From Sphingobacteriales bacterium (GTDB taxonomy: Bacteria; Bacteroidota; Bacteroidia; Chitinophagales; LD1): 64,000 nucleotides of DNA. Both the position numbers and the translations under genes were made by a program. Positions 7,806 to 42,117 of the stretch are shown here, piece by piece. The notes under the pieces were generated by a model, which saw nothing but the letters and a program-made list of their open reading frames with translations, searched no databases and was not told the origin of the DNA. Positions within the stretch are counted from its first letter, which is position 1. Each line of letters begins with the position of its first letter. Location: NCBI GenBank assembly GCA_018262795.1, contig JADFDM010000013.1:8159-72158 (forward strand), in the 5' to 3' direction.

Positions 7806-9359
7806 ATGGATTTTCTCAAACGCACTTTCCCTCTTTTATTCGGCATTTTTTTGCTGAGTGTGGTCGTGCGTCTACCGCAACTCAATCGTCCGCTTTCGCG
7901 CCATCACGAATTTTGCACTGCTATCTCCCTTCGCATTATGCAAATATGGTACGACAATGGAATAATGAAGTACCACTACAATCCGGTAATGACTTACAAC
8001 CGCCCGGCAGATAAATTCATTAATAATTACGCCAACCAAACGGGTAAAATGATGGATACAGAGGGAAACTATTATTATGTTTCTCATCCGCCTTTTGCCT
8101 ATTACGCGCCTTTTGCGCTTTTTAAACTGCTGCACGTGCGACCCGATGTGTTGCCCTTGCAGTTATTTAATCTGCTGTTGCATTTTATCAGCGCACTATT
8201 CGTGTATTTTACCGTTTGTCTGCTCAGCTTTAACCGTGCGCGCAGTTTGCCGTACCGATCGGCATTGGTGGCGTACGCCATCTATTTGTTTATGCCTGTT
8301 ACGCTTTGGTTTCAGGGCAATGTTTATATGAGCGATATGGCAGTGCATACACTGTTCATTATTGGAGTTTACACAGCTCTAAAAATGATTATCCGGCAAA
8401 AATTCTATTCGTTTAAGTATTTCTTCCTCTACTCGCTGGTGCTTGCTCTTATGATTTATACTTCTTGGCTTGGCTTGTTCTTTGCCTTCAGCGTATTTAT
8501 TTACTCGCTGCTTCATGTGCGCGGCAATCGCGGCTTTAAAGTGCTGTTGTGGTCCACCACCATTATTTCACTGGTCATGCTACGACTGATTATCTATCAA
8601 TATTCGCAAATCAACGGCCCCATCGCTTATTTTGAAGAAATGTTCAGCCGCTATCTGGTGCGCGGTAGTTTAGCCGAAACAGATCATGGTCTGTTCCATT
8701 TTATGTTCGATTATCTGTGGTTGATTAAAACACTTCTCTATAACTACGTGGTCAGCTACGTTGTCATCTATGCCGCCTTGCTACTCTTTTTCTTTTTGGC
8801 CATGAGCCGCAAAAAAATGAAGATAGTTTTCAGCGAAAATGGGTATCGCTTTATATGGCTAAGTGTTACGCCCATTTTGCTGTTGCATGTGTTTTTACTG
8901 AATTATTCCGAGCACGACTTTACCGCTCTGTATGCTTCGCTTTTTTTCAGTGTGCTTCTCGGAATTTTATATGATAAGGTGAAGAAGAGTGGAACCGTTC
9001 CGCTCAAAAAAATGAGAATCGGATTATTGGCGATGCTACTCTTATTGGTGGTTCAATACGAGTTGACAAACCGCAATGTCAATATAGAACACGACCGGCA
9101 GATAGGCGCACAAGTAATTGCAAAGAACACCTCTGAGAATCAGGTGATATTTTGGAATAACAATGAAACCCTGAGTCCGCAAATGGTTTTTTATGCGCAG
9201 CGGAATATCCGGTTTGCTACTGACCCGAAAGATGCGCAAGACTTTTTGAAAAAAACACAGCGAACGGAAGGAGTTTATTTTTCAGAATCAGAAAAAGGAA
9301 TCAGCAGCACGCAGATTTTTCTCGATACAGTAATGGCAACTGTTTTTATAGAAAAATGA
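7806..9359 (+). CDS. Polytopic GT-C glycosyltransferase-like membrane protein (ArnT/PMT-like)
   Basis: N-terminal TM followed by a loop with YYVSHPPF, about 12 TM helices, C-terminal soluble tail. Confidence 0.55.
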   Translation: MDFLKRTFPLLFGIFLLSVVVRLPQLNRPLSRHHEFCTAISLRIMQIWYDNGIMKYHYNPVMTYNRPADKFINNYANQTGKMMDTEGNYYYVSHPPFAYYAPFALFKLLHVRPDVLPLQLFNLLLHFISALFVYFTVCLLSFNRARSLPYRSALVAYAIYLFMPVTLWFQGNVYMSDMAVHTLFIIGVYTALKMIIRQKFYSFKYFFLYSLVLALMIYTSWLGLFFAFSVFIYSLLHVRGNRGFKVLLWSTTIISLVMLRLIIYQYSQINGPIAYFEEMFSRYLVRGSLAETDHGLFHFMFDYLWLIKTLLYNYVVSYVVIYAALLLFFFLAMSRKKMKIVFSENGYRFIWLSVTPILLLHVFLLNYSEHDFTALYASLFFSVLLGILYDKVKKSGTVPLKKMRIGLLAMLLLLVVQYELTNRNVNIEHDRQIGAQVIAKNTSENQVIFWNNNETLSPQMVFYAQRNIRFATDPKDAQDFLKKTQRTEGVYFSESEKGISSTQIFLDTVMATVFIEK

Positions 9360-28992: not shown

Positions 28993-29083
28993 CTTATTAA
29001 ACTCGTTCAGGGGCGAAGGTGAAGAGGGTACATCTACCCTCTTCGCATTTCACCGCATCACTTAACATTTCAATTTCATTGCC

Positions 29084-30448
29084 ATGACCATTACTCAAGA
29101 AAAAATTGACCCTCTACTTTCAAACATCAAAATATCTCTACAAAAAGAGGATTATGAACCTCTGGTAAAGAAACAGCTTAAAGCTCTTAACAAGAAAGTG
29201 CAGATCAAAGGCTTCCGCCCCGGTATGGTGCCTTCTGATATGGTTAAAAAGATGTACGGCAACGAAGTGTTGGCCGAAGAGTTGGATAAGATGCTGAACG
29301 ATGAAATATATAAATACATCAACGAGAATAAACTCGACATCATCGCTTCACCAATCCCTGCTCAGGGACAGAAATTAGATATAGATATTGACAACATTCG
29401 CGATGTGGAGTTCAACTTCGAGATTGGGCACAATCCCGAAGTGAGTTTGGCTTATTTGGAAAGTTCACCCGGCTTTACCAAATACAGAATTCAAGCCGAT
29501 GATAAAATGGTGGAGGAAGAGGTGCTTCGCATTCGCAACAGATTTGCCACTTATGAGTATCCTGAAACTGTAGGCGAAAAGGATGTGCTCACGGTAACTA
29601 TTGAAGAATTGGGCGAAGATGGAAATCTGAAACCCGGTGGCGTGAGCACGGTCTCGTCCTTGATGCCCGACTTATTGAAAGAGGAATATAGATCGAAAGT
29701 GATCGCACTCAAAAAACAAGAAAGTTTTGAGGCAGATGTTTTTGACCTGATGGATCGCGACCGACAAAGCATGGCAAAGAATGTGTTGAACTTGGAGGAT
29801 ACCGCCAACATAGAAGAGATAGGTAATAAGTTTCGGATCACGCTCGATAACATTACTCGCTCAGTACCGGCTGAAATAAACGAAGAGTTTTTTCAGAAGG
29901 TGTATGGCGAACATGGGCCTAAGACAGAGGAAGAGATGCGCAAAAATATTAAGCAGGATCTCGAATCTTACTTTGATGGACAAACCGATAGTTATGTGGT
30001 GAACGACCTGTACAAGGCGATGATGGAAAACGTAGAGATTGCGCTGCCGGAAGATTTCTTGAAGCGCTGGCTTCTGCTGACCAATAAAGATATTATTTCG
30101 GAAGAAAACATAGAAACAGACTTTCCGCTGTTTATTAAGCAAATGCGCTGGGATCTAATTCAGAAAAAGATTAAGGAGCAGGAAAATATAAATGTGACTT
30201 CTGAAGAAATTCACGATCGCGTTCGCAATAATATTATTCAACAACTCTATAGCTACGGCCTTAAAAATATTGAGGAAGAATGGGTAGAGCAGCTGATGAA
30301 GAAACAACTCACCGATAATAAAGTCCTTTCCCAAACTCGCGACCAAATACTGGAAGATAAAGTAATGGCCTATCTTAAAACTAAAGTCACCCTTCATGAT
30401 AAGCCGGTGACGATGGAGGAGTTTAAGGCGTTGGTCGAAAAGAAATAG
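29084..30448 (+). CDS. tig: Trigger factor
   Basis: KGFRPGMVP ribosome-binding signature; follows tRNA-Leu. Confidence 0.92.
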   Translation: MTITQEKIDPLLSNIKISLQKEDYEPLVKKQLKALNKKVQIKGFRPGMVPSDMVKKMYGNEVLAEELDKMLNDEIYKYINENKLDIIASPIPAQGQKLDIDIDNIRDVEFNFEIGHNPEVSLAYLESSPGFTKYRIQADDKMVEEEVLRIRNRFATYEYPETVGEKDVLTVTIEELGEDGNLKPGGVSTVSSLMPDLLKEEYRSKVIALKKQESFEADVFDLMDRDRQSMAKNVLNLEDTANIEEIGNKFRITLDNITRSVPAEINEEFFQKVYGEHGPKTEEEMRKNIKQDLESYFDGQTDSYVVNDLYKAMMENVEIALPEDFLKRWLLLTNKDIISEENIETDFPLFIKQMRWDLIQKKIKEQENINVTSEEIHDRVRNNIIQQLYSYGLKNIEEEWVEQLMKKQLTDNKVLSQTRDQILEDKVMAYLKTKVTLHDKPVTMEEFKALVEKK

Positions 30449-30459
30449 GGTAGGGGAGA

Positions 30460-30725
30460 GTTAATCGGGTATTGGTTAATAGTTAATCGTGTATTGGTTA
30501 ATGATCAATCCGCAATCCGTAATTGTTGCTAATTGAACGTTAACACAGCTTGTTCCTTGCCGATGCCTGCGTCTGCCTTACCGATGTCTGTGTCTCTGCC
30601 GATGTCTGTGTCTTCACAGACATCTATATTCAACATTGCTGGCGCGTCTGTGAGGACACAGACGTGGGTAAAGTAGAAGGGAGTTAATCGCGTGTTGGTT
30701 GTTAGTTAAAGGTCAATTCGCAATT
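30460..30725. repeat. Repeat-rich intergenic region: three GTTAATCGnGTRTTGGTT copies enclosing an inverted REP-like palindrome pair
   Basis: Copies at 30460, 30482 and 30683; palindromes GATGTCTGTG-TCTT-CACAGACATC (30601-30624) and CGTCTGTG-AGGA-CACAGACG (30645-30664). Confidence 0.75.
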
Positions 30726-30727
30726 GC

Positions 30728-31348
30728 TCATTTAATACTCTTCAAACCTTCTAATGCCGATTTATCATCGGGCGCGAGCAGCAATGTTTTGTTGAACAGC
30801 ACTTTCGCTTCATTCACTTTGCCCAACTGTAAATTGCACCAAGCGTAAAGCAGCAATCCATCATAGTCAAAAGGATATAGGTTCACCACCTTCTCTAAAT
30901 ATTCAAAAGCCTTAGAGTAGTCCTTTCTACCGTAATAAATAGAGCCTATCCGATAATTGGCTTTGGTGTTTTGAGGATCAATCTTTGTGATTTCTAAATA
31001 CTGATTCAGCACAGCATCCCAATTGCCGGCAGCCGCAGCGGGAAGCACATACCCAAATTTCGCTTCAATGCTGTAAGGCATCAAATTCATTGCCCGCTGA
31101 TAATAACTCATAGACTCGGTAAACAAGCCCGCTTCATAGTTCAGGTAAGCCAGCCGCAGGTTGATCTCGTAACTTTTCTCATCGTAAATGGCAGCCACCT
31201 CTTTAATGGCATCACTGTATTTCCCCGACTTCTCGGAGGTGTAACTTTTGGTGAATGCGCTCTGCACGGCACTCTGCGCAAACGCAGAACTACCGGTTAA
31301 AAAAAGCAGCACGAAGAAAAGTGAGGTGATTTTTGTGATTGGTTTCAT
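30728..31348 (-). CDS. Exported TPR protein
   Basis: Signal peptide ending SAFA-Q; consecutive TPR-like helical repeats; ATG at 31348. Confidence 0.8.
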   Translation of the reverse strand: MKPITKITSLFFVLLFLTGSSAFAQSAVQSAFTKSYTSEKSGKYSDAIKEVAAIYDEKSYEINLRLAYLNYEAGLFTESMSYYQRAMNLMPYSIEAKFGYVLPAAAAGNWDAVLNQYLEITKIDPQNTKANYRIGSIYYGRKDYSKAFEYLEKVVNLYPFDYDGLLLYAWCNLQLGKVNEAKVLFNKTLLLAPDDKSALEGLKSIK

Positions 31349-31358
31349 AACTATTGGT

Positions 31359-32528
31359 TTAGAAAATAATTTTTGTTCCGAATGAAATTCCATGACTAAT
31401 GTAATTGGTTTGAAGCGTCTGCTCTTTCTTAAATTCTAATTGGTAAAGCGCATATATACGGTAACGGTTCTGGATGATAAACTCCGGTACAAAAGTCAAA
31501 TTATCATTCAACCTATCGTAACCGTTTTGAACGATAGCTCCGTTGTACAAATTGAAATTGCGAACCCGCGCATAAGTGTAAGCAGCGCTGAACGAAAAAT
31601 AACGCGGGAAGTTAAAACTCACCTTGGCCTGAAACAAGGGATGAACCTTCTGATACAGATTGTCTGTAAAAAGTATCATCGTGCCACTCAAGGATAAGCG
31701 CTGATTGGCCAGCGGATAAACCGTAACACCCAAGCTGTGTTGTAGCTGATAAGAAGTGTCGAAATTTGAAAATGAGTTAGCCAGCGCCACCTTCGCATAA
31801 GAGAAATTCTTTGTCACATTCAAAGAACCTAAGAAATAAGCCTTCTTAGTTTTCACTATCTTATCCGTAGAGTTGAACACAGCATACAACACACTGAAGG
31901 CGGGAGTAAGAGAGAACCCTTTTTTGAGAGGAAGATTTGCACTCACGTAATATTGATGCTGCTGATAAGTGCCATAATAATATTGCTGCTGTACGTAACT
32001 ATAAGAATGAAATAAGGAATAGCCGCGAACCAGCAAGTGATTTAAGCCGAAAGAAACATAATACAATGGCTTCACGGTTTTGGAGGCAGAAGAAAACTTC
32101 ATCCCTACCTCTGCGGTCGCAGCATTTATGAGAGATGCTTTTTTCGTATGCGTAATAGCGCGAAGTGAATCTGAAAAATGGGCCGTCATTCGTTCCCCTT
32201 CATTATATAGGTCACTAAAAAGATAGCTGTAGTACAGATATTCTTTCGTCCACTCGTTGGATGAATTAAACTGCTGTGCTTTTTCAAAATGAGAAAGCGC
32301 TAAGCGATATTTTTGTTGCTCGTAGCAGGCAATGCCTACTCGCATTCGCAGGTAGTAATAATCAATATGCCGATGAATAGCCTTGCGGCCCTGTTGCTCC
32401 AACGCTTTCCATTTTCCCGATTGATAAAGCGCATAGGTGCTGTCGTTCACTAATTTTGAATCAAGCTCCGTTTGCGCAGAGGCCGACACCGAAACGCAGG
32501 CGAGAAGAACAGAAATCAACTTATACAT
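31359..32528 (-). CDS. TPR plus predicted beta-barrel outer-membrane protein
   Basis: Signal peptide, TPR-like N-terminus, aromatic-rich amphipathic strands, terminal Phe (GISFGTKIIF). Confidence 0.6.
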   Translation of the reverse strand: MYKLISVLLACVSVSASAQTELDSKLVNDSTYALYQSGKWKALEQQGRKAIHRHIDYYYLRMRVGIACYEQQKYRLALSHFEKAQQFNSSNEWTKEYLYYSYLFSDLYNEGERMTAHFSDSLRAITHTKKASLINAATAEVGMKFSSASKTVKPLYYVSFGLNHLLVRGYSLFHSYSYVQQQYYYGTYQQHQYYVSANLPLKKGFSLTPAFSVLYAVFNSTDKIVKTKKAYFLGSLNVTKNFSYAKVALANSFSNFDTSYQLQHSLGVTVYPLANQRLSLSGTMILFTDNLYQKVHPLFQAKVSFNFPRYFSFSAAYTYARVRNFNLYNGAIVQNGYDRLNDNLTFVPEFIIQNRYRIYALYQLEFKKEQTLQTNYISHGISFGTKIIF

Positions 32529-34720
32529 TCCGCTGTTATCGTATGGTGATGGTGGGTTACCTTAAAAGTGCTAATCTTTCCTTGCGCTACCGAAATTTCA
32601 AAATCCATTCTCTTTAAAATACCGGAGGCAGCATGAACGGTGGCGGAAGATTCAATTACCACAAGACTTGGTTGATGCGGGTCATCGGTGCTTTTAAATT
32701 TCGAGGAATAATCTGCTTTTAAGTAGATGTAGAAAGGAGCGATAAAATCTTGCAGAAATTTAGCGACTCCCGAATAGAAACCGCTCATGGGCAACACATC
32801 GCTCACTTCTAAGCGGTCGTAATAGCCCAACACAATCTTATAGGCTCCGAGATAGAATTGGTAGAGCAAAGATTTCTTATCGCCATAAAAATCGGTGAAG
32901 TAATGCACCGTGCCGTTGTTTACAAAATAGGCATAGGCTTTTGATTGGTGGCAATAGAGATAGGTGTGGTTGTAAGCATCGGTAAATACTTCCCACCTCA
33001 GCAGCTGTTTTTTGTTATGGTCCGAGCGGCTCACCTCAAACTTTAATTCCTTCCCGGGAATAAAGTCAAAGGCACTTTTTAAGATGGGCGTTATCTGTAT
33101 GCCCGAAATAGTTGATCGCTCTTCGGGGTAATCAAAGGAGTGAAAGGTGTACTCTCCTTCTTTCTTCTCTACATAATAACTGATGGGATACTTCATAGTT
33201 TTAGACCCCACAAAGGGAGTGGCCTGTAATTGGAAATGTATGTGCGGCTCTGGAGAACGACCCGAACTGCCGCAAGCAGCCACTACTTGCCCTTTGTAAA
33301 CATACTCTCCCGGCTTCACTTTAAAACTCCCCTTGCGAAGGTGGCTTATCTTTGAATAAAGCGCATCACTGTGTTTAATGATGAGCGTATTGCCCCAGTT
33401 ATGTTCCAGATTTACTTCTCCAATCGGATTGTCTTCCACTTCATCTACAAGGTCGTACACATAGCCGGCAGCCGGGGCCAACACGGGTGCATTGTAACCA
33501 TAGAAATCACTCACCGCAGTGCCGGGAAGCCGAAAGGTTATCTTCATGTCGTCAGTCACTACAAAATCCCATGCATATTTCCATTCTCCTTTGTGCGTAA
33601 TATTTCCTTCGTGCCCTTGCGATACATACCATTCTCCAAAAAATGGCAGATGAATATGGAAATATGATTGATTGCTGAAACGATCTTTTCCGTTGCGGTG
33701 TTTATACAAATTCTTCTCCGGAGAAAACTGTTGAATCCACACTAACTCAAGTTGGTTCGACTCTGTGCGATACTTCAGCGTGAGCAACAACACAATCAGA
33801 ATAATATTAAACGGCAGCGAATAAATAGGCAATTGAAAAGAACCGAACACCACCATCATAGAAGTGTGCATGATAGCAATGATGGGAGCTGTAAGAAGAG
33901 CGAGTAAATAAGATTTTGGGGAGGGAATCAAGAAGAATCCTCCGATGCAAATGGCAGATAGGATATAATTGAAGCCGATGAAATTATAGTTGAGCGGCTC
34001 GGCACTTCCGTTGAGGAATTGAAAAAAATAATAGCCGGTCACAAAACCCACCAAAGAGAGCGTAAAGGCAATGCGCGAGTAAATGAGCAACCCCACTGCA
34101 ATCAACAAACCGGAGATAATGTTGTACTGAAAATAGATGGCCCCCAACGATTTAAAATAAGCATCGGCCCAGCGAGGTATTGGCAGGGCATCTAAGTACT
34201 GAAACCATTCTACCAAGTGAATTCCTCCGAGCGAGTACAACTCATTATTTACAAAAATCCCTGTTTGGCTGAGGGTGACCACCGAAGAAGTGCGAAGAGT
34301 CACAATTAAAGCCCATACAGATAGCAAGAAAGGGAAAGCGAGAATCGGTAAGTTGTATTTTGAAAACACAATAGCAATAGCCTTAGAGAGCAGTGTGGTG
34401 AAAACAGAAATTACAAAAAGGATGATGAAGAACTGAATGCTGAAATTAAAATACAGCCCCATCACCAAGCCTATCATCAAGCTGTTGAAACTATACACGC
34501 CCGTTTGCAAATACGTTTTATTGAAGCCGAGCCACCAAGCGATTAATATACCCGATGTGAGCGCAAACACTCCGCTAAAACCCGAATACGGATTTACGAA
34601 AGAAGAGAGGAGAATGAGATAAGCAAAGGTGCGATTGTCCGAAAAGAACATTTGCGAATAGCTATGAATAAAGCTATCTGCAAAGAATTTCAATGCGTGT
34701 TTACGGTGTGCCGCTAACAT
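32516..34720 (-). CDS. Urea-transporter-family membrane domain fused to an M23 metallopeptidase domain
   Basis: Two UT half-repeats (SYSQMFFSDN...LPILAFPF; SLGAIYFQYN...LPIYSLPF), then M23 motifs TH.....AWDF, SHL..GS and GSSGRSPEPHIHFQ. Confidence 0.8.
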   Translation of the reverse strand: MLAAHRKHALKFFADSFIHSYSQMFFSDNRTFAYLILLSSFVNPYSGFSGVFALTSGILIAWWLGFNKTYLQTGVYSFNSLMIGLVMGLYFNFSIQFFIILFVISVFTTLLSKAIAIVFSKYNLPILAFPFLLSVWALIVTLRTSSVVTLSQTGIFVNNELYSLGGIHLVEWFQYLDALPIPRWADAYFKSLGAIYFQYNIISGLLIAVGLLIYSRIAFTLSLVGFVTGYYFFQFLNGSAEPLNYNFIGFNYILSAICIGGFFLIPSPKSYLLALLTAPIIAIMHTSMMVVFGSFQLPIYSLPFNIILIVLLLTLKYRTESNQLELVWIQQFSPEKNLYKHRNGKDRFSNQSYFHIHLPFFGEWYVSQGHEGNITHKGEWKYAWDFVVTDDMKITFRLPGTAVSDFYGYNAPVLAPAAGYVYDLVDEVEDNPIGEVNLEHNWGNTLIIKHSDALYSKISHLRKGSFKVKPGEYVYKGQVVAACGSSGRSPEPHIHFQLQATPFVGSKTMKYPISYYVEKKEGEYTFHSFDYPEERSTISGIQITPILKSAFDFIPGKELKFEVSRSDHNKKQLLRWEVFTDAYNHTYLYCHQSKAYAYFVNNGTVHYFTDFYGDKKSLLYQFYLGAYKIVLGYYDRLEVSDVLPMSGFYSGVAKFLQDFIAPFYIYLKADYSSKFKSTDDPHQPSLVVIESSATVHAASGILKRMDFEISVAQGKISTFKVTHHHHTITAECIS

Positions 34721-34733
34721 GGAGTCTTAAAAA

Positions 34734-36092
34734 TCACAGTTTAAACTTCGCTAAATAATCCGGCTTTACCTCGCTGGACTCAATGGAGCTGAGCGTTTCT
34801 CTTTTGCGAATGAGATGCGGTTGATGCTCCATATCTATCATTACTACAGCCGGCCGCAGCGAAATGAACTGCATCCATTGCGTCATGTTATACGCTCCAA
34901 CATTATGCACCACTACATGGTCATCTTTTTTCAATGGAGGCAGCGTTACGTTTTCGCGAATCACATCAATATTCATACACAAGGGGCCGTATAGCACACA
35001 ATCCTCGGTGTAGTTGCTAAACTCCTGTGCCGGACTTATTTTATGGTCATACCAAAAGGACGTGAACATTACATTCACTCCAAAGTCCAGAATGGTAGCT
35101 CGCCTTCCATCGCTCAGTCGCTTATTTGAAATTACAGTGCCTAACAAGTACCCTGCTTCGTCAATCAGTGCGCGGCCGGTTTCTAAAATGAGCAAAGGCA
35201 ATTCATCGGTGCCAAAACCGGAGTTGAGGATAGCGGCACAAATCGCTTCGGCAAACTGATCGAAATTCGGATTGGCATCTACCCCCTGCAAATAAGAGCC
35301 CTTCAGAGTATTTTTTGAAGCGAAGCCACCGCCCATATCAATATATTCAATATTGCGCTTGTATTTTTTGCGAATGCCGAGAGCCAAGTCGCTTATTTTA
35401 GAGGCAGCAATACCGTAAGCGCTGGGCGAAAGCATAAAAGTGCCGATGTGACAATGCAGCCCCACCAATTCCAATTTATCCGTCAGTATAATTTTATTGA
35501 TGGCATCCCAGGCTTGTCCGTTTTCGTAATTGAAGCCGAAGCGATCCCAAATTGGATAAATGCCCGTGTCCATGTTTACCCGAATTGCTACCCGTGGGCG
35601 CAGCTTTAGTTCTTCTGCAATCTCCGTTAAGCGGTAAAGTTCATCGAGGTGATCAATGTGAATAGGCGAATTGTTTCTCACCGCCATCTTCAACTCCTCA
35701 TCTGTTTTATCAGGGCCGTTGAAAATCACTTTGTTGCCCGGCACTCCGTTGTTGATAGCCTTCTGATATTCAAAACCCGATACTACTTCGCCCCACGAAC
35801 CCTCCTGATGAAAAACATTGCAGACCGCATTGATGTAATTCGTTTTATACGACCAGGCAAACTGCACCTTCGGGTAGCGCGTTTTAAAGGCACGAGTAGC
35901 TTCGCGGTAGGTTTGGCGAATCGTTCTTTCTGAAATAGCAAAAAGTGGCGAGCCAAAATCTTCGAGCAACTTTACGACCGACACATCATCAATATGCGTG
36001 AGCGGAGTATATTCTGTGCGCATACCGAATTTGTTCATCAGTCCGGCATTCAGTCGCTGAATCAGCGGGCGTTCATATTGTAGTTTCTTCAT
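34734..36092 (-). CDS. Fold-type III PLP decarboxylase (DAP/Orn/Arg decarboxylase family, BtrK-like)
   Basis: WSYKTN (PLP Lys), HCHIG, DMGGGF, ETGRAL, GPLCMNID and VGAY motifs; ATG at 36092. Confidence 0.85.
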   Translation of the reverse strand: MKKLQYERPLIQRLNAGLMNKFGMRTEYTPLTHIDDVSVVKLLEDFGSPLFAISERTIRQTYREATRAFKTRYPKVQFAWSYKTNYINAVCNVFHQEGSWGEVVSGFEYQKAINNGVPGNKVIFNGPDKTDEELKMAVRNNSPIHIDHLDELYRLTEIAEELKLRPRVAIRVNMDTGIYPIWDRFGFNYENGQAWDAINKIILTDKLELVGLHCHIGTFMLSPSAYGIAASKISDLALGIRKKYKRNIEYIDMGGGFASKNTLKGSYLQGVDANPNFDQFAEAICAAILNSGFGTDELPLLILETGRALIDEAGYLLGTVISNKRLSDGRRATILDFGVNVMFTSFWYDHKISPAQEFSNYTEDCVLYGPLCMNIDVIRENVTLPPLKKDDHVVVHNVGAYNMTQWMQFISLRPAVVMIDMEHQPHLIRKRETLSSIESSEVKPDYLAKFKL

Positions 36093-36112
36093 GAGAAGGT
36101 TTTTAAATTTTA

Positions 36113-37162
36113 TCAATACTCTCCAAAGGTGGAGATGGTTTCAAATTCTTTCAGATCGCAAATCATGTCGTAGCTATAGCGGATAAACATTTTGCCCACT
36201 TCATATTCCGCAAAGGATTTCACCTCTTCCCCCATCGCCATCCGCATCATGGCATCGGGGTGGTTTTGCCCGGCTCCCACAGCGAGATATACCCAGGCCG
36301 GAAACCGCGGATTGATTTCGATGAGGTAATACTCGTTGTTATTCGTCTTTATCATTTCCAATTCGCAAGGGCCTTTCCATTTTGAGTGGCGGATGAGTTT
36401 TTGGGTGATTTGCAGCAGCTTGTCATCTTCAAGAGTAATACCTGCCCATGCTTTCCCTTTGTCGGTAATCACTTGCTTGCGCATAGGTACCGCGCCAATG
36501 GTGTTTCCCTTGCCATCGCCCAGCGCAGTCACGTTTACCTCAGTGCCGTAAGTGAATTGTTGAATGATAATAGGCAGCCCCCATTTGGCACTTATTTTAT
36601 TGAAATATTGCGCGGCCTGATCGGGTGTGTAAGCAACGTTGGCATCGTAAAATTTCCCTTTCACTACTAAGGGATATGAAAACTGCTGCGATAGGGAAGG
36701 AATTTCAGAGAGGCTGAAAACCATTTTGCTCTTAGGTACTTTGATTTCATATTTCTTTCCAAACTCGGTGAGGTTTGCTTTGTGCCTCTCTTCAAATTGA
36801 TCGAGGGTAGGCAGAAAGGTTTGAATGTTCAATTCTTTCTCCAGCACCGGAGCCAGCTTAATAAAGTTGAAAAGCTCGGCATCAAAATTTGGAATAATCA
36901 AATCAATCTTCTCTTGGTTGTGGATGTATCGGAGACGCTCTAAGAGACTACTTTGCCCGGCTGTGGGCAGTGGAATATGATAGGTTTTCGCTACCAAGTT
37001 GCGCATGTATATTCCCGGTTCCAACGCATCATAGGCAAGGCCGATAATGCGAACCTCATAATCTTTGCTATCGAGCAAACCGCGAATTACGGGAATGCCG
37101 GGGCCGGGGCTGTCAATATTATTGAGGCCGGTCACGGCCACGTTAATCTTTTTCTTTCCCAT
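36113..37162 (-). CDS. ATP-grasp ligase
   Basis: IDLIIPNFDAEL, YPLVVKG, IIQQF..G.E and LIEINPRF motifs. Confidence 0.88.
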   Translation of the reverse strand: MGKKKINVAVTGLNNIDSPGPGIPVIRGLLDSKDYEVRIIGLAYDALEPGIYMRNLVAKTYHIPLPTAGQSSLLERLRYIHNQEKIDLIIPNFDAELFNFIKLAPVLEKELNIQTFLPTLDQFEERHKANLTEFGKKYEIKVPKSKMVFSLSEIPSLSQQFSYPLVVKGKFYDANVAYTPDQAAQYFNKISAKWGLPIIIQQFTYGTEVNVTALGDGKGNTIGAVPMRKQVITDKGKAWAGITLEDDKLLQITQKLIRHSKWKGPCELEMIKTNNNEYYLIEINPRFPAWVYLAVGAGQNHPDAMMRMAMGEEVKSFAEYEVGKMFIRYSYDMICDLKEFETISTFGEY

Positions 37163-37403
37163 CGGTATCGGTTAGTTTTACCTGCTCCAGCATTTTGGTG
37201 AAATCATAATAATCCTTTTCTACCGTATCGCGATCGGTGGCATACTTGCCCAGCAGATGCTTTTTAATCTCCTCCTCCGGCTTATTCTCTTTTAGCATTT
37301 TCAGTATTTCCAGCCCGATAGGGTTCACTGAAAAAGAGTCGCCTGTGGAAGGGTTAAACACAAAGCCCGTATCGCTCAAAGCGATGTTCTTCTTTATTAT
37401 CAT
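37143..37403 (-). CDS. Stand-alone PqqD-family / RiPP recognition element (RRE) protein
   Basis: 86 aa; beta strands GFVFNPSTGDSFSVN, then helices PIGLEILKML...EIKKHL...Y...TVEKDYYDF..ML, matching the PqqD pattern. Confidence 0.78.
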   Translation of the reverse strand: MIIKKNIALSDTGFVFNPSTGDSFSVNPIGLEILKMLKENKPEEEIKKHLLGKYATDRDTVEKDYYDFTKMLEQVKLTDTDGKEKD

Positions 37404-37458
37404 AGCAACAAATTTTTTCTAAGACGGAACAAAAGTGCGCAGGTTTAGCGGCATCCGT

Positions 37459-37486
37459 GTTACAAAGTTTTTGGAAAAAGTTATAA
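37459..37486 (-). promoter_or_regulatory. Candidate AraC-type operator: direct repeat TT(A/G)TAAC with 21-bp period
   Basis: GTTACAA at 37459 and GTTATAA at 37480 on the + strand, just upstream of a variant -7 element CACTTTTG (minus strand, about 37430-37437) for the PqqD operon. Confidence 0.4.
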
Positions 37487-37488
37487 GA

Positions 37489-38094
37489 TTAGGAGGAGGG
37501 GAGTTGATTGACCGGTATCCGTTTGCGGTGAAACTCCTTCTTGTAATCCTGCACATTGATACCCGTAATCTGCTTAAACTGGTTCGACAAATATTGCACG
37601 CTGCTATAGTCGAGCAGGTGTGCAATCTCGCTCAACGTAAGCTCTCCGTAAGAAATAAGTTCCTTCACCTTTTCCATTTTTATTTGGATGATATACTTCT
37701 CTAAAGTAGTGCCGGTTTTTTGTGAAAATACTTTGCTGAGGTGGGAGTAAGACTCCCCTAATCGCTGACTTAAATAGTCGGAGTTGCGAAGGATGGTATT
37801 GGTGTTGTTGCCGTAAAAAATCAATTGGATGATGGCTTGCTTCATCTGCTCCACCAACTTCAACTCCCGGTCATCTATCAACCCAAATCCGTGATTGCCT
37901 AACAATTCTTGAAGCGCTTCGTGACCAATCACTTGATTGTTGTAACTAATCACCGCCATCCCCAATTCAATGTGGTGTACCTTGATAAAGCCCGTGCGCT
38001 CCAACTCCCAGCGAACCACCTTGATGCAGCTATCGCTCACCATATTGCGGATGTAGATGGTCATTTGCTTGTTATTAAGAGTGGATGGCTGCAT
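37489..38094 (-). CDS. AraC-family transcriptional regulator with an HMA-like N-terminal domain
   Basis: IYIRNMVSDSCIKVV N-terminus; HLSKVFS...GTTLEKY and LTLSEIAHLLDYSSVQYLSNQFKQITG HTH; the start may be at 38064. Confidence 0.88.
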   Translation of the reverse strand: MQPSTLNNKQMTIYIRNMVSDSCIKVVRWELERTGFIKVHHIELGMAVISYNNQVIGHEALQELLGNHGFGLIDDRELKLVEQMKQAIIQLIFYGNNTNTILRNSDYLSQRLGESYSHLSKVFSQKTGTTLEKYIIQIKMEKVKELISYGELTLSEIAHLLDYSSVQYLSNQFKQITGINVQDYKKEFHRKRIPVNQLPSS

Positions 38095-38516
38095 GATGAA
38101 GGCAGAATTTATCTGTTAATCCTGAATAAATATAACGAACCGAGAAAACTTGTAGATAAAACGAAGAAGAGAAAGGTTAATTTTTTTGACTGTAAAGACG
38201 GCTTGTAATCGGAGGACTCAAACATCTATTTATAAGGCATAAAGAATGGACAAACCTGCGACTAAGTAGAGGCTATTTCTGTGATTTTTTGTAATGGAAA
38301 TAATTTGGTTTGTAAATACAGATAGGCGTTTAATGTTTCATCTAAACAGCATGATTTTTTAAAATCGGTTCCGTACAAACACACGTGGTGCAAAGGCTTT
38401 AGAAACGAAGCACAACAGTAAGGTGCCGAATAAATGGATACTTGTTGCCGAAAGGGAAGCGGCACTATTGTTGAAACCTGAACGGGCTTTTCAATTTCAA
38501 TTATCTTCACGCTTCT

Positions 38517-39116
38517 ATGCTTCTATTGCTTGCCTTTGCTTTAGGTTTTGTGGGTTATCTGCCATTGGGAAATATCAATCTCACGGTGTTGCAGTTGAGC
38601 ATGGAACAGCAGAAAAGACATTGGCAGGCGTTTATCGCGTTCGCGGCTCTGATGGAATTCATTTATTGCTATGCTTGCATTTCGGGTCTTGAATTACTGC
38701 GCAGAGAAACACAACTAATAGTGATGTTTAACTGGAGTGCGGTGATTATTTTTCTGCTGCTCGGTATTTTTACTTTCACTCATACCGAAACAGTAAGGCC
38801 CGATTCGCGATTGTCACCGGGGGTAAAACGGGGTATATTATTGGCGGTGTTTAACCCTTTACAAATTCCGTTTTGGATGGTGTGGGGGGTGTATATGATG
38901 CAGAATGGCTGGCTCCAAAGCAGCGCGATTTCTATTGCGCTGTTCAGTTTTATTTGTGCGTTGGGCGCGGCCTCCATTCTCTACATTTATGCGCTGGCGG
39001 GGAAAAAAGTGGTGGAGAAACTGAATGTGAACGGGAATATTTTGAACCGCTTTATCGGCTCTATTTTTATTTTGCTGGCGGTGTATGAGACCATAAAAAT
39101 TATTTACCACTTGTAA
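38517..39116 (+). CDS. LysE-superfamily membrane transporter
   Basis: GYLPLGNINL and GILLAVFNPLQIPFW motifs; about 6 TM helices. Confidence 0.8.
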   Translation: MLLLLAFALGFVGYLPLGNINLTVLQLSMEQQKRHWQAFIAFAALMEFIYCYACISGLELLRRETQLIVMFNWSAVIIFLLLGIFTFTHTETVRPDSRLSPGVKRGILLAVFNPLQIPFWMVWGVYMMQNGWLQSSAISIALFSFICALGAASILYIYALAGKKVVEKLNVNGNILNRFIGSIFILLAVYETIKIIYHL

Positions 39117-39281
39117 ATAGGCCGCCCAACAGAGATGCCTCTGTCGGTCAAAATTTATCCGGGTCCTTCATCCTCCATTTTTACCGGAATCGTATGCCGC
39201 TTTAGCTCTTTTTTGTAACGCTTTATAAATCAATAGAGCGGAAGCGTTTATATGAAAGCCTCAGAAAAAAATCGCAAAATT

Positions 39282-40004
39282 TCAATCCACCTTATTTAAT
39301 CTCGAAGTTGCTACTATTCGCCCTCCTTCATCCGCTACTTTTAAAATGTAAGTTCCTTTCGCCAATGTCTCAATAGAAATTTCTATCTGATCTCCCACGG
39401 TGCTATTGACACTCGACTTCACCAAGTCGCCTTTCATATTATATACCTCGAAAGATAAATTGCCTGCATCGGATAAGCCATTCACCGTAAATGTCCCTTT
39501 CACCGGATTGGGATACAGACGAAGATTTGAATGCGGAATATCCGTGATGGCATTCGGACAATTGGCAATAAGGTTAGCCGTAAAGTGGATCATCAGTGCA
39601 GTATTAGCGCTATCCCCCGTTAGCCATACCAGCACATCCGCATCTCCCGTTCCCGAAACGCAATGGGGTGAAAACTGAAATTTAAAATCCATTGTGTCTC
39701 CCGCAGAAACATTTAATGACTCATAAGGCCCTGGGTTGAATAGCAAATCATAGCAGTTCTTGTTATCGCACAACTTTACTTCCCAATTAGTAGAAGGAGT
39801 GGAATAATTCTTCAACATCCAGCTAAAAGTCTGGCTGTTCACCGTATTATTTTTCACTTCTAAATGAATATCCTGCGGATCGAATTCATCGGTAATAGTA
39901 CCCGATGCAACCGAAGTGTCAGACGGAATAGGAATAATCCCTTGTGAATGAGAAATCGCTACACTTCCAACCAAAAGGGACAAACAGATACAAATTTTTT
40001 TCAT
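39282..40004 (-). CDS. T9SS-secreted protein (Ig-like domain plus CTD)
   Basis: Signal peptide; CTD LYPNPVK...KGTYILKV. Confidence 0.8.
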   Translation of the reverse strand: MKKICICLSLLVGSVAISHSQGIIPIPSDTSVASGTITDEFDPQDIHLEVKNNTVNSQTFSWMLKNYSTPSTNWEVKLCDNKNCYDLLFNPGPYESLNVSAGDTMDFKFQFSPHCVSGTGDADVLVWLTGDSANTALMIHFTANLIANCPNAITDIPHSNLRLYPNPVKGTFTVNGLSDAGNLSFEVYNMKGDLVKSSVNSTVGDQIEISIETLAKGTYILKVADEGGRIVATSRLNKVD

Positions 40005-40164
40005 TGGTTTTGTTAATTAATTAAAGTGGAATAGTCAACGAAAATAGGGCTTGCTGTGACATGTGCAAGTCAAAATTTGTTTACATCTTATCCCACCTTG
40101 CTAATCAAGTATTAATTTCATTGTTTAGTTTTCTACCTTCGTTACCTAAAAATAATTTCAAACA

Positions 40165-42117
40165 ATGAAAAGATTTACACTTACTATCGCAGTACTGGTA
40201 GTGGCGGGTTTCGGGCTGATGGCTCAAACCACCATTTTTACCGAAAACTTCAGCAGCACCAACTTGCCTTCAGGATGGCAAAACGTAGATAACTCCGGTG
40301 GCGGCACTTGGGCTAGAAAAACCAGTTCTCATAGCTTTGCTTCTACTACGGCATCGAACGGCTTCATGATTTTTGACGCGGATGCGAAAGGAAATGATAG
40401 CAAAGCTGAAAATGCCGATTTAATTACGGCAGCTATAAATTGTTCGGGGCATAATCATGTAGCCCTGCAGTTTGAACAGTATTTTCAACAATATGCGGCT
40501 GCATTGGGCACTGTTTTCGTCAGTACCGATGGGATTAGTTGGAGTCAGGTATATACAGTCACCAACACAACCGACAACCCGGAAGTAACACTCATTGACA
40601 TAACTACTGCTGCCGCCAATCAACCTACAGTGTATATCAAATTTAATTACACCGGGGATTACGATTACTGGTGGGCTATTGATGACATTAAGTTATTTGA
40701 GCCGGCCGCTTTAGACATTTCTGTGGAGTCTATTACCAACAATCAGTATGTGGGTTTAAGCAACCAGACCGTGAGCGGTGTGGTAAAAAATAATGGAGCT
40801 GAAACCATCACTTCATTTGATATGACCTACACCGATAATGGGGGTAGTGCCGTGGTTCAGAGTGTCTCCGGTGTAAATATTCAATCTTTCCAGACATACA
40901 GTTTTAGCTTTAATCAACCTATCGCAATGTCCACTCCTATGTTGCACACTATAGTGGTAAATGTTTCTGCTCCCAATAATGGAAGCGAAACGAACTTGGC
41001 CAACAACTCTGCCACAAAAGATGTAACCGCGCTTAGCGCCATTCCGGTGAAGAATGCTTTAATAGAAGAGTTTACTACGGCACAATGCCAATATTGCCCC
41101 AGAGGAACCAGCACCATGAATGGTATTCTTGCCGGTCATAGCAATATCATTGGCGTTGCACTTCATGCGGGTTTCGGAACCGATGCCATGACTACCGCTG
41201 ACCATTCAACAGTGGCTGCGGCCTTTACTTCGGGAGCACCTACTGCTGCTGTGGACAGAGTTCTTTTTGCCGGGGAAGAAGCGGTGGGAGTGGACGATGG
41301 TAACTGGGAAACCTACGGTGTGCAAGAAACCAACCGAGTGACTCCCGTAGCTATCATTGCCGATAATACATATAACAGTGGAACCCGTGAATTAGTAGTA
41401 AATACTTCTGCAAAATTCTTCGGCCCGATTAATGACGACTTCCGTATCAACTGCTACATCATAGAAGACAGTGTAACCGGAACGGGAAGTGGCTATAACC
41501 AAATAAATGCTTACAATAATGTATCCTCCAGCGAATGGTATCAAAAAGGAAACCCTATTGTTGGATTCCAACACCGCCACGTTTGCCGCCAAATGTTAGG
41601 TGGCGCTTGGGGTTCTACCGGAGTAATCAGCACTCCCACGACTGATGGAGGAGTTTATTCAAAACAATACACTTACACACTACCTGCCGGTTGGAATGAT
41701 TCCCGAGTTAAATTGGTTGTTCTGGTGCAGCACTATGCCGCCAATAAAAATGACCGCAACATTCTCAACGCTATGGAATTGGATTTGAATAGCGCTGACT
41801 CTACCCGCTACGTTGCGGCTGTTTACAACGGAATTAAAGAAGTGAGTGCCACCAATGTTGGCGAAGTAAGTTTGTATCCTAATCCTGCTGCTGATATTCT
41901 TAACATCAGCTATACGCTGAGTAAAGATGCTACCGTAAGTTTTGGGATTTACAACATCATAGGTCAAAATGTAATGAACATTGAACCTTCGGCACTCAAC
42001 AAAGGCGACTACAGAACACGAGTAAATACTGCTGACCTGAAAAACGGAGTTTATTTCGTTTCAGTAAAGGAAAACAACAAAACAGTGAACACACTGAAAT
42101 TTGTCGTAAATAAATAA
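40165..42117 (+). CDS. Omp28-related T9SS-secreted protein
   Basis: Signal peptide; adhesin-like N-domain; IEEFTTAQCQYCP and YIIEDSV...HRHVCR Omp28 motifs; CTD LYPNPA. Confidence 0.82.
   Translation: MKRFTLTIAVLVVAGFGLMAQTTIFTENFSSTNLPSGWQNVDNSGGGTWARKTSSHSFASTTASNGFMIFDADAKGNDSKAENADLITAAINCSGHNHVALQFEQYFQQYAAALGTVFVSTDGISWSQVYTVTNTTDNPEVTLIDITTAAANQPTVYIKFNYTGDYDYWWAIDDIKLFEPAALDISVESITNNQYVGLSNQTVSGVVKNNGAETITSFDMTYTDNGGSAVVQSVSGVNIQSFQTYSFSFNQPIAMSTPMLHTIVVNVSAPNNGSETNLANNSATKDVTALSAIPVKNALIEEFTTAQCQYCPRGTSTMNGILAGHSNIIGVALHAGFGTDAMTTADHSTVAAAFTSGAPTAAVDRVLFAGEEAVGVDDGNWETYGVQETNRVTPVAIIADNTYNSGTRELVVNTSAKFFGPINDDFRINCYIIEDSVTGTGSGYNQINAYNNVSSSEWYQKGNPIVGFQHRHVCRQMLGGAWGSTGVISTPTTDGGVYSKQYTYTLPAGWNDSRVKLVVLVQHYAANKNDRNILNAMELDLNSADSTRYVAAVYNGIKEVSATNVGEVSLYPNPAADILNISYTLSKDATVSFGIYNIIGQNVMNIEPSALNKGDYRTRVNTADLKNGVYFVSVKENNKTVNTLKFVVNK

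Follow-up and report, generated by a model that had tools for sequence, protein, structure and literature searches.

A run of six co-directional, tightly packed open reading frames (ORFs) occupies positions 30728–37403 on the minus strand of a 64,000-nucleotide (nt) stretch of DNA from a Sphingobacteriales bacterium (assembly GCA_018262795.1, contig JADFDM010000013.1), referred to here in its full length as the window. The parts belong to known families; their combination matches no characterised system. In the ORF list of the window, read in the direction of transcription, the run comprises a PqqD-family recognition element (RRE) for peptides that are made by the ribosome and post-translationally modified (RiPPs) (86 residues, 37143–37403; Pfam PqqD, 4.3e-10), an ATP-grasp ligase of the carbamoyl-phosphate-synthase-like or PRK12767 type (349 residues, 36113–37162), an alanine-racemase-fold (fold III) decarboxylase dependent on pyridoxal phosphate (PLP) (460 residues, 34734–36116, with a likely start at the ATG at 36092), a fusion of a urea transporter (UT) channel domain with an M23 metallopeptidase domain (734 residues, 32516–34720), an outer-membrane protein (389 residues, 31359–32528), and a TPR protein that is predicted to be exported (221 residues, 30728–31393, likely start methionine at 31348; Pfam TPR_2, 3.4e-15). 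A gene for an AraC-type regulator (37489–38094, minus strand; Pfam HTH_18, 7.3e-16) lies upstream of the operon, separated from the PqqD gene by 85 nt.

Gene Organization

The PqqD and ATP-grasp genes overlap by 20 nt and the ATP-grasp and decarboxylase genes by 4 nt, the latter two being separated by 20 nt if the decarboxylase starts, like its orthologues, at the ATG at 36092. A 13-nt gap separates the decarboxylase and UT–M23 genes, the UT–M23 and outer-membrane protein genes overlap by 13 nt, and the longest ORF of the TPR gene overlaps the preceding gene by 35 nt, a junction that becomes a 10-nt gap when counted from the internal methionine at 31348. With the likely starts, all junctions of the six genes are overlaps of 4–20 nt or gaps of 10–20 nt, in agreement with a preliminary description of this DNA in which six tightly coupled minus-strand genes with junctions of 20 nt or less had been reported. 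The six gene identities named there agree with Pfam matches, judged against the gathering score, and with an AlphaFold2 model of the barrel. Judged against the cut-offs of the individual models, none of the six proteins passes any NCBIfam model. A scan for sigma-70 promoters and terminators, which does not cover Bacteroidota promoters, yielded no more sites than shuffled sequence would lead one to expect. An Rfam search of window positions 29000–41000 at E ≤ 1 returned no riboswitch or leader RNA and only two chance-level matches, and on seven related loci only tRNA reached the gathering score.

Conservation and Distribution

Of 41 close relatives, 18 have a match to the ATP-grasp ligase at E ≤ 0.001, and 13 of these reach E ≤ 1e-120. 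In a phylum-wide sample of 401 genomes, 31 contain the ligase at E ≤ 1e-40 (24 of 180 genera), and the distribution of the cluster is thus patchy yet broad. When 27 loci fetched around ATP-grasp matches were searched by tblastn with the window proteins, the PqqD, ATP-grasp, decarboxylase, and UT–M23 genes occurred in the same order and on the same strand in 25 of them; of the two non-collinear loci, one (L016) has a frameshifted decarboxylase and no UT–M23 gene, and the other (L053) has no PqqD gene at that place. The TPR protein was recovered in 22 of the 27 loci and the divergent barrel in 13. Because the same order recurs in a phylum-wide sample, the arrangement does not represent a chance run of ORFs. 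A second set was made up of 47 of the best 80 loci, each at least 15 kb long, in which all ORFs of at least 90 residues were clustered. Here, the ATP-grasp ligase and the decarboxylase are each present in 47 of 47 loci, the UT–M23 fusion and the TPR protein in 45 each, and the outer-membrane protein in 43, while the AraC gene lies upstream in 16 and is thus a frequent but not a constant neighbour. Further families, named from sequence reading only, are response-regulator-like (11/47) and sigma-factor-like (7/47). The co-occurrence in other genomes that the preliminary description had presupposed is therefore borne out by neighbourhood comparison (25 of 27 loci collinear and, the AraC gene aside, 43–47 of the 47 long loci for each gene), and the genes are inherited together.

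Among species-representative genomes, relatives of the ATP-grasp ligase were confirmed in at least 589 of 600 candidate stretches. The titles of the best 80 stretches name Chitinophagales, Flavobacteriales, Cytophagales, Bacteroidales, genera of Marinilabiliales type, Ignavibacteria, and Chlorobiota, and the nearest loci among the matches listed, L066 (90% identity) and L067 (81%), are titled as Chitinophaga or Chitinophagales metagenome-assembled genomes (MAGs). The UT–M23 family has 2619 members at E ≤ 0.001, which are named only ‘urea transporter’ or ‘MepM/NlpD’ in the sources. Full-text literature searches on the component families and Bacteroidota brought up no paper describing the gene set; a survey of RREs treats ATP-grasp only as a neighbourhood marker and a survey of graspetides mentions PqqD by analogy only. 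Together with the lack of a specific NCBIfam model, this agrees with the earlier statement that no characterised pathway has this gene set.

The Recognition Element and the Search for a Precursor

The 86-residue protein matches the Pfam PqqD model (PF05402) with 40.2 bits against a cut-off of 23.4. A profile built from 25 of its orthologues retrieves the solved RREs TbiB1 (5v1u, 1.4e-11), TfuB1 (6jx3, 3.4e-8), and PbaB1 (9x90_B, 4.6e-5), with alignments spanning residues 7–78 of the window protein, and ranks the true PqqD (0.015) behind these lasso RREs. The earlier assignment of the protein to the PqqD-family RREs is thus upheld, and by profile similarity its closest relatives are the lasso-type B1 RREs. 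RREs have a winged-helix fold whose leader-binding cleft lies between the edge strand and helix 3. According to the crystal structures of PbaB1 and LppB, such elements bind a [Y/W]xxPx[L/V/I/F/A] leader motif in a cleft split by a conserved phenylalanine, and D70 of LppB forms a hydrogen bond with the tyrosine hydroxyl of the leader (PMC13381572); a YxxPxL leader motif is also described in PMC10368454. In the HMMER alignment, residues F24, I29, I33, Y54, D64, F68, L72, and L77 of the window protein correspond to Y39, I44, I48, Y69, Q79, F83, L87, and L92 of PbaB1, and several of the cleft residues are invariant or almost so within the family.

A PqqD-like ORF was found in 89 loci. A search for longer, fused forms found none, which constitutes weak evidence. 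A role as a carrier resembling LysW, loaded through a C-terminal acid, was considered, the last residue being glutamate in 29 and aspartate in 16 of the 89 loci, and was judged unlikely, as tail length varies between 0 and about 15 residues and the final residue is often K, N, A, or Y. A complex prediction for the ATP-grasp ligase with PqqD scored 0.11, which speaks neither for nor against binding. A Pfam scan of the cluster proteins revealed no pqqA, pqqB, pqqC, or pqqE, and no lasso cyclase occurs among the six, as the preliminary description had noted for both pathways. The pqqC model had no match in the genome, its control matching no genome either.

That description had also implied a separate peptide substrate delivered by the RRE, and it is this key part that was not found. 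Small ORFs of 12–110 residues lying outside large ORFs were clustered across loci. Besides PqqD itself, no conserved small ORF was detected in 27 sequences (the window and 26 fetched loci) searched to about 3 kb around the cluster, or in 47 loci searched over a range of roughly 4 kb before to 9.5 kb after the ATP-grasp start, and the other multi-locus clusters turned out to be shadow ORFs on or opposite PqqD. Over these ranges, a precursor is absent in cis. A scan of the genome for [YFW]E[RK]P.[ILV], a pattern narrower than the general leader motif, yielded no convincing small ORF. A 35-residue ORF downstream of the TPR gene (30529–30636, minus strand), which contains a repeated DTDIG motif and adjoins a GTCTGTG...CACAGAC inverted repeat, was rejected as a candidate: no related locus has the DNA. 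In locus L064, the gap between the ATP-grasp and decarboxylase genes (about 8868–9084) carries tandem short repeats translating as ...SPEGATSP..GHSPG..., which look intergenic and not like a peptide gene.

The Ligase, the Decarboxylase, and Its N-Terminal Tail

The ATP-grasp ligase scores 39.3 bits against a cut-off of 29.1 with ATPgrasp_Ter and is likewise above the Pfam cut-off for ATP-grasp_3. It matches NCBIfam PRK12767.1-4 (8.2e-27) below the cut-off, its score with a ‘carbamoyl phosphate synthase-like’ model is 94 bits against a cut-off of 390, and a profile search of the Protein Data Bank (PDB) retrieves the large chain of carbamoyl phosphate synthase (CPS; 4.2e-16) and 2pn1 (2.7e-14). 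Fifty columns are invariant across 26 orthologues. No graspetide or RimK-type model matched at E ≤ 0.01, the best models being CPS-like.

The decarboxylase carries both domains of its class, with Orn_Arg_deC_N (PF02784) at 102.2 bits against 23.4 and Orn_DAP_Arg_deC (PF00278) at 50.4 bits against 23. Its best solved relative is FslC/FigC (7kh2, 4.3e-61), followed by LysA (7e-42) and BtrK (4.7e-23), and it fails both relevant NCBIfam models (FslC, 244 bits against a cut-off of 500; lysA, 218.6 against 297.9), whereas a true lysA (393 bits) is found apart from the cluster, on contig C13. FigC/FslC is an N-citrylornithine decarboxylase for which specificity elements have been described, and FigC, SbnH, AcsE, MccE, BtrK, the diaminopimelate (DAP) decarboxylases, and D-ornithine decarboxylase are placed in one clade outside polyamine synthesis (PMC7857480). 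The Cys loop reads C-M-N-I-D in the window enzyme, C-M-Q-H-D in FigC, and C-E-S in LysA (HMMER alignment), so that the DAP-binding Cys-Glu-Ser loop of LysA is absent. The citrate-binding residues H357, R387, and N389 of FigC (PMC7857480) align with I, Q, and M in the window enzyme, and its specificity helix reads F-T-S-F-W-Y. Across 47 rows (the window and 46 orthologues), the catalytic motifs of the class (PLP lysine, His stack, Gly loop, and Cys loop), seen as YKTN, HCHIG, GGGF, and GPLCMNID, and the pocket motifs are kept in at least 85%, mostly at least 98%, of sequences. Because the pocket positions are conserved, the citrate residues replaced, and the Cys-Glu-Ser loop gone, the alignment indicates a conserved substrate that is neither a citryl conjugate nor free DAP. 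In sequence, the enzyme clearly groups with those acting on side-chain-tethered amino acids (FslC, SbnH, BtrK) and not with housekeeping LysA.

About 33 N-terminal residues of the decarboxylase (35991–36092, minus strand) lie outside the region aligned with LysA and FslC, the model and PDB alignments beginning only at residues 40–45. A motif [Y/F]E[R/K/P]Px[I/V] is present in this tail in 47 of 47 orthologues, five to seven residues past the likely start. Its form in the window, YERPLI (36060–36077), agrees with the leader motif that RREs of the B1 type recognise. In a six-frame scan, [YFW]E[RK]P.[ILV] occurs 11 times in the genome, and only the decarboxylase has an N-terminal occurrence in a long ORF. 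The two proteins also covary. In the 86 loci in which both parts are readable, a set that includes 13 metagenomic loci of a divergent clade, a tail tyrosine is accompanied by the aspartate equivalent to PqqD Asp64 in 69 of 69 cases, and in all 17 cases of a tail phenylalanine the position holds Tyr, Ser, or Thr, without exception (MAFFT alignment). In one genome (G128) the two genes are located on different contigs, with a YEKP tail and an aspartate at the position equivalent to 64. The decarboxylase tail is therefore a candidate for the ligand of the RRE, a role to which its sequence points.

The UT–M23 Fusion and the Outer-Membrane Components

The fusion protein combines a UT channel domain (residues 15–314, 33779–34678; PF03253, 2.2e-53, 181.8 bits against 25), an M23 metallopeptidase domain (33191–33658; Peptidase_M23, 2.4e-14, 53.7 bits against 28.7), and a beta-rich C-terminal domain without family assignment (residues 511–734, 32519–33190), all on the minus strand. 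Its predicted fold is confident (pLDDT 89.8, pTM 0.80). By Foldseek, the N-terminal half resembles urea channels of bacteria and humans (dvUT, 3k3f, 7.2e-15, target-normalised TM-score 0.80), and the middle matches the LytM/M23 domains of DipM, EnpA, and lysostaphin at about 1e-6. Against the yut equivalog model the UT domain scores 105 bits, below the cut-off of 274.6. In 36 sequences, the residues of the M23 domain that bind zinc or act in catalysis (H376, D385, H460, H493, and H495) do not vary. The spacing from His to Asp is 8 residues, compared with the usual 3 in M23 enzymes. The C-terminal domain is modelled confidently but without a listed Foldseek match; it shows no Pfam match at E < 0.01 and nothing usable at E ≤ 5, and the Atlas search scores of 0.81 and 0.79 are leads only and uninformative. 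The domain is absent from a 521-residue variant in G128.

UT proteins have both termini in the cytoplasm. The N-terminus of the UT domain and the linker between its last helix and the M23 domain are rich in K and R, and on this basis, by the positive-inside rule together with the known topology, the M23 domain is predicted to face the cytoplasm, which is unusual for the M23 family. The fusion carries the only UT domain of the genome. Searches of this genome, which is 98.4% complete, for the urease alpha subunit and for urea carboxylase gave nothing above the cut-off, so that urea nutrition is unlikely as the role of the fusion. In a 2026 paper, M23 is named as one of the domains that follow the UT domains of bacteria on the C-terminal side; as far as its available text goes, the paper gives only the UT–M23 architecture, without gene context or function (PMC12998343).

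The 389-residue outer-membrane protein, whose family measures about 449 residues, has only a sub-threshold TPR_1 match by sequence. Its AlphaFold2 model (pLDDT 91.1) shows a signal peptide, three TPR-like helix pairs (residues 24–126), and a 14-strand barrel (134–388), for which Foldseek matches include OmpG (1.9e-9), CymA, FadL, and BcsC, the first three being the most similar. The model thus firmly identifies the protein as a TPR module plus a 14-strand barrel. The TPR protein exceeds the TPR_2 cut-off (55.3 against 27 bits) and begins with a hydrophobic segment ending in AFAQ. N-termini resembling signal peptides are therefore found on the TPR protein (by sequence) and the barrel (by model), and none is present on PqqD, the ATP-grasp ligase, or the decarboxylase. 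Of the complete pathway spanning both membranes proposed in the preliminary description, the envelope layout is plausible in view of the signal peptides, the inner-membrane channel fold, and the barrel; its completeness and the direction of export are conjectural.

Neighbouring Genes and Variant Loci

A LysE-type exporter gene (38517–39116, plus strand) is divergent from the AraC gene and is not a conserved neighbour in other loci. Proteins sorted by the type 9 secretion system (T9SS) and bearing repeats of DxDxDG type adjoin PqqD in four loci from two families, directly upstream in L051, L060, and L065 and at 7582–9201 in L153. The T9SS-tailed protein of the window (39282–40004) was rejected as a conserved partner, since it shows no similarity (best E 3.1) to the T9SS protein located upstream of PqqD in L051.

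Several loci depart from the typical arrangement. In the same genus, L016 (G004:C25, 4322–5726) retains PqqD and ATP-grasp genes at 73–79% identity next to a decarboxylase split in two frames; the UT–M23, barrel, and TPR genes were not found by tblastn in the whole 14-kb locus, which looks like a decaying copy. An ATP-grasp match with two TGA and one TAA stops (G029:C31:25003–26041) is probably a pseudogene. The cluster of G128 is split: L053 (G128:C21) holds the ATP-grasp ligase, the decarboxylase, and the 521-residue UT–M23 variant, and L153 (G128:C10) holds an outer-membrane barrel, a 168-residue exported protein, PqqD, and a 539-residue T9SS-tailed protein with FG-GAP-like repeats. In L048 (12028–14171) and L055 (14–1853), the UT–M23 match consists of two overlapping out-of-frame pieces, for which a frameshift or an assembly error is possible. 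Typical clusters under the MAG titles ‘uncultured Bifidobacterium sp.’ (L081) and ‘Candidatus Melainabacteria’ (L132) look like mislabelling or mis-binning and not like an extension of the range. Identical ATP-grasp matches at both ends of a 3.74-Mb contig (G375:C1, 3928–4956 and 3735344–3736372) suggest an untrimmed circular overlap.

A Proposed Biosynthesis-and-Export Pathway

The widespread cluster is real and uncharacterised, and all its catalytic motifs are intact, including the zinc ligands and catalytic histidines of the M23 domain and the PLP lysine and Cys loop of the decarboxylase. What the cluster does has to be deduced from these parts, and we infer the order of reactions, the ligand of the RRE, the membrane side of the M23 domain, the direction of transport, and the size of the product. 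PLP-dependent decarboxylation requires a free alpha-amino acid, and a residue in normal peptide linkage is not a substrate. From this chemistry it follows that, if the decarboxylase acts after the ligase, the amino acid would have to be attached via its side chain, as it is for FslC, SbnH, and BtrK. We tentatively favour, with a confidence that falls somewhat short of even, a cassette for biosynthesis and export, conserved in Bacteroidota and allied phyla, whose putative product bears an amine and is probably small, and in which the RRE is docked on the tail of the decarboxylase. First, the cytoplasmic ATP-grasp ligase would join the side chain of an amino acid to an acceptor by an amide bond. 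In a second step, the decarboxylase would strip the alpha-carboxyl group from the side-chain-linked amino acid to leave a free amine. The lasso-B1-like RRE, which has no precursor in its neighbourhood, would dock on the [Y/F]ERPx[I/V] tail of the decarboxylase and so assemble the enzymes. Next, the M23 peptidase, facing the cytoplasm and fused to the UT domain, would release the product by cleavage. The product might then pass the inner membrane by way of the UT pore or alongside it, and the outer membrane via the TPR-barrel protein, aided by the periplasmic TPR protein.

Within this scheme, the specific proposal that a lasso-type RRE has been put to a new use in docking enzymes, and that in place of a separate precursor it binds a built-in leader-like tail of the decarboxylase, is doubtful, though it deserves serious consideration. 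In its boldest version, the tail would itself be a covalent carrier: the ATP-grasp ligase would load an amino acid onto it via the side chain, the decarboxylase would convert the tail-bound amino acid in cis or across a dimer, and the M23 domain would cut the product off at the mouth of the UT channel. The six genes are best regarded as an RRE-dependent biosynthetic cluster, and there is a real chance that the mode of action of its RRE is without precedent.

A number of observations weigh against the docked cassette. In the ATP-grasp tree (46 rows), the loci with a tail phenylalanine form one clade separated by one change (SH-aLRT 99); the covariation therefore represents a single evolutionary event, which makes it suggestive without amounting to statistical proof, and coincidence is possible. 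Segments elsewhere in the cluster proteins that are buried and conserved contain [Y/W/F]xxPx[L/I/V] too, namely WGLPII in the ATP-grasp ligase, YNLPIL in the UT domain, and YNAPVL in the M23 domain, so that the motif taken alone is weak evidence. The segment of the tail that follows the motif, NKFG...TEY.P, is conserved as well, and the tail may for this reason be a folded part of the enzyme. We know of no RRE that binds the tail of an enzyme. The order in which the ligase precedes the decarboxylase is assumed, and the reverse is conceivable, with the decarboxylase providing a free amine for the ligase. The UT pore is narrow, and only a very small product could pass. The cytoplasmic position of the M23 domain follows from the positive-inside rule and the known topology of UT proteins, and binding, activity, product, and transcript are all predictions from sequence and models.

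If the RRE indeed docks on an enzyme tail, RREs would gain a role as assembly modules and the rules of genome mining that expect a nearby precursor would need revision. This matters because RREs serve as class-independent beacons in the mining of peptide natural products, and the widespread RRE cluster described here fits no known class. The carrier version, if true, would constitute a peptide-scaffolded small-molecule pathway without a free precursor, together with a new kind of peptidase-channel exporter. An M23 peptidase that faces the cytoplasm and is joined to a urea-channel fold would be an unstudied membrane machine, for which the database label ‘urea transporter’ probably misleads. Bacteroidota and Ignavibacteria that are abundant in freshwater, sludge, and sediment may secrete the product as a metabolite, which would lend the cluster ecological interest.

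Alternative Explanations

The main alternative is a classical RiPP pathway in which the precursor is encoded elsewhere and the RRE binds its YxxPxL-type leader. The M23 domain would then act as the leader peptidase in place of lasso B2 or LppS, the ATP-grasp ligase would form an isopeptide or macrolactam in place of the lasso cyclase, and the decarboxylase would tailor a side-chain-linked residue or supply an amine. To our knowledge, every characterised PqqD or RRE binds a precursor peptide, and unlinked precursors are known in other RiPP classes. The binding of precursors is documented for the B1 and LppB types (PMC13381572). The combination of an RRE, a peptidase, and an ATP-dependent amide-forming enzyme follows the logic of lasso biosynthesis, and the RRE, with a PqqD-like ORF in 89 loci, is a nearly universal component of the cluster. 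However, neither small-ORF search (about 3 kb around the cluster in 27 sequences; about 4 kb upstream to 9.5 kb downstream in 47 loci) found a conserved candidate, and the genome scan with the narrower motif brought up no convincing one. In addition, the ligase is CPS-like, with no graspetide or RimK-type model at E ≤ 0.01, and a PLP decarboxylase would be inactive on a peptide-linked residue. Taken together, this explanation, including the roles it assigns to the peptidase, the ligase, and the decarboxylase, is rather unlikely.

The cluster might instead make a metallophore or another amide metabolite, with the ATP-grasp ligase acting as a siderophore synthetase of the NRPS-independent (NIS) type, the decarboxylase acting like FslC or SbnH, PqqD as an accessory, and the AraC protein as a metal-responsive regulator with a domain like the heavy-metal-associated (HMA) family. 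The nearest characterised decarboxylases are siderophore enzymes (PMC7857480), and the lack of a precursor gene near the cluster fits a pathway of this kind. The AraC protein scores 58.7 bits against 33.6 with HTH_18 and has an N-terminal beta-alpha-beta-like domain. Read by eye, an MxCxxC-like motif is present in 9 of its 16 orthologues, and four of five orthologues scanned give full-length HMA matches; the latter reach 21.4, 20.1, 18.8, and 13.2 bits, however, all below the Pfam threshold of 24.8, and the window copy has no HMA match, its S-D-S-C lacking the first cysteine. The regulator is, moreover, present in only 16 of 47 loci, the residues that bind citrate in FslC (H357, R387, N389) are replaced by I, Q, and M, and neither a TonB-dependent receptor nor an NIS synthetase is among the conserved neighbours. 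A metallophore pathway thus appears improbable.

Remodelling of the envelope is the next explanation to be considered. Here, the M23 domain would cut cross-links between stem peptides of peptidoglycan, the LysA-like enzyme would decarboxylate peptide-bound diaminopimelate, the ATP-grasp ligase would add an amino acid to a muropeptide, and the TPR and barrel proteins would anchor the complex in the outer membrane. This is in keeping with the solved M23 relatives, all of which are peptidoglycan hydrolases or regulators of these, with the position of LysA as the second-best relative of the decarboxylase, and with a weak match of the ATP-grasp ligase to an archaeal pseudomurein ligase model (1.5e-8). 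Yet the K/R-rich N-terminus and linker of the UT domain predict a cytoplasmic M23 domain without access to the sacculus, the DAP-binding loop of LysA is lost, and the RRE is left without a role. With 31 of 401 genomes, the cluster is also too patchy to be core wall machinery, and this explanation is highly improbable. Urea uptake with unrelated neighbouring enzymes, as the strong UT match (2.2e-53) and the name ‘urea transporter’ in the sources imply, can be dismissed as barely credible in a genome without a urease alpha subunit or a urea carboxylase above the cut-off, where the UT domain is always fused to an intact M23 domain and collinear with the ligase and the decarboxylase.

Comparison with Known Systems

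By sequence, the cluster falls outside the lasso, graspetide, LysA, and FslC classes. It comes closest to lasso systems in its RRE, which resembles B1 proteins (TbiB1, TfuB1, PbaB1, and also LppB, which is paired with LppS) and retains the residues of the leader-binding cleft, and in the presence of a peptidase and an ATP-dependent amide-forming enzyme. In contrast to lasso systems, it contains neither an Asn-synthetase-like cyclase nor a transglutaminase-like B2 protein, and the four Asn_synthase genes of the genome are located on contigs C1, C12, C13, and C18, not on the cluster contig C4. It also has no precursor in cis, its peptidase is a channel-fused M23 enzyme, and its ligase is of the ATP-grasp type. 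Graspetides of the microviridin type differ in their ligase, that of the window being CPS-like, and in having a neighbouring precursor with Ser/Thr/Lys and Asp/Glu core residues, of which none was found in the searched surroundings of the cluster.

The butirosin enzymes BtrI, BtrJ, and BtrK likewise pair an ATP-grasp ligase with an alanine-racemase-fold decarboxylase for a side-chain-tethered amino acid, and BtrK is recognisably related to the window enzyme (4.7e-23). Unlike the butirosin system, the cluster has no acyl carrier protein, and the similarity to BtrK is below that to FslC or LysA. Peptidase-containing ABC transporters (PCATs), which form part of biosynthetic clusters, join a cytoplasm-facing C39 cysteine peptidase to a conduit in the inner membrane. 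They share with the UT–M23 protein the fusion of a peptidase to a conduit and are functional analogues only, without homology, since the window protein combines a zinc-dependent M23 domain with a narrow-pore UT fold. The outer-membrane protein resembles the BcsC and PgaA porins in having a periplasmic TPR module before its barrel, and the 14-strand channels OmpG and CymA match as well; it differs from the former two in its 14 strands and about three TPR pairs, and the cluster has no glycosyltransferase or polymer synthase. The siderophore enzymes FslC/FigC and SbnH are set apart by the replaced citrate residues, the score of 244 against 500 bits, and the absence of an NIS synthetase nearby, whereas FslC is the best solved relative and shares with the window decarboxylase the Cys-Met loop and the enlarged-pocket type (PMC7857480). 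The UT–M23 architecture reported in PMC12998343 is the same fusion as that of the window protein.

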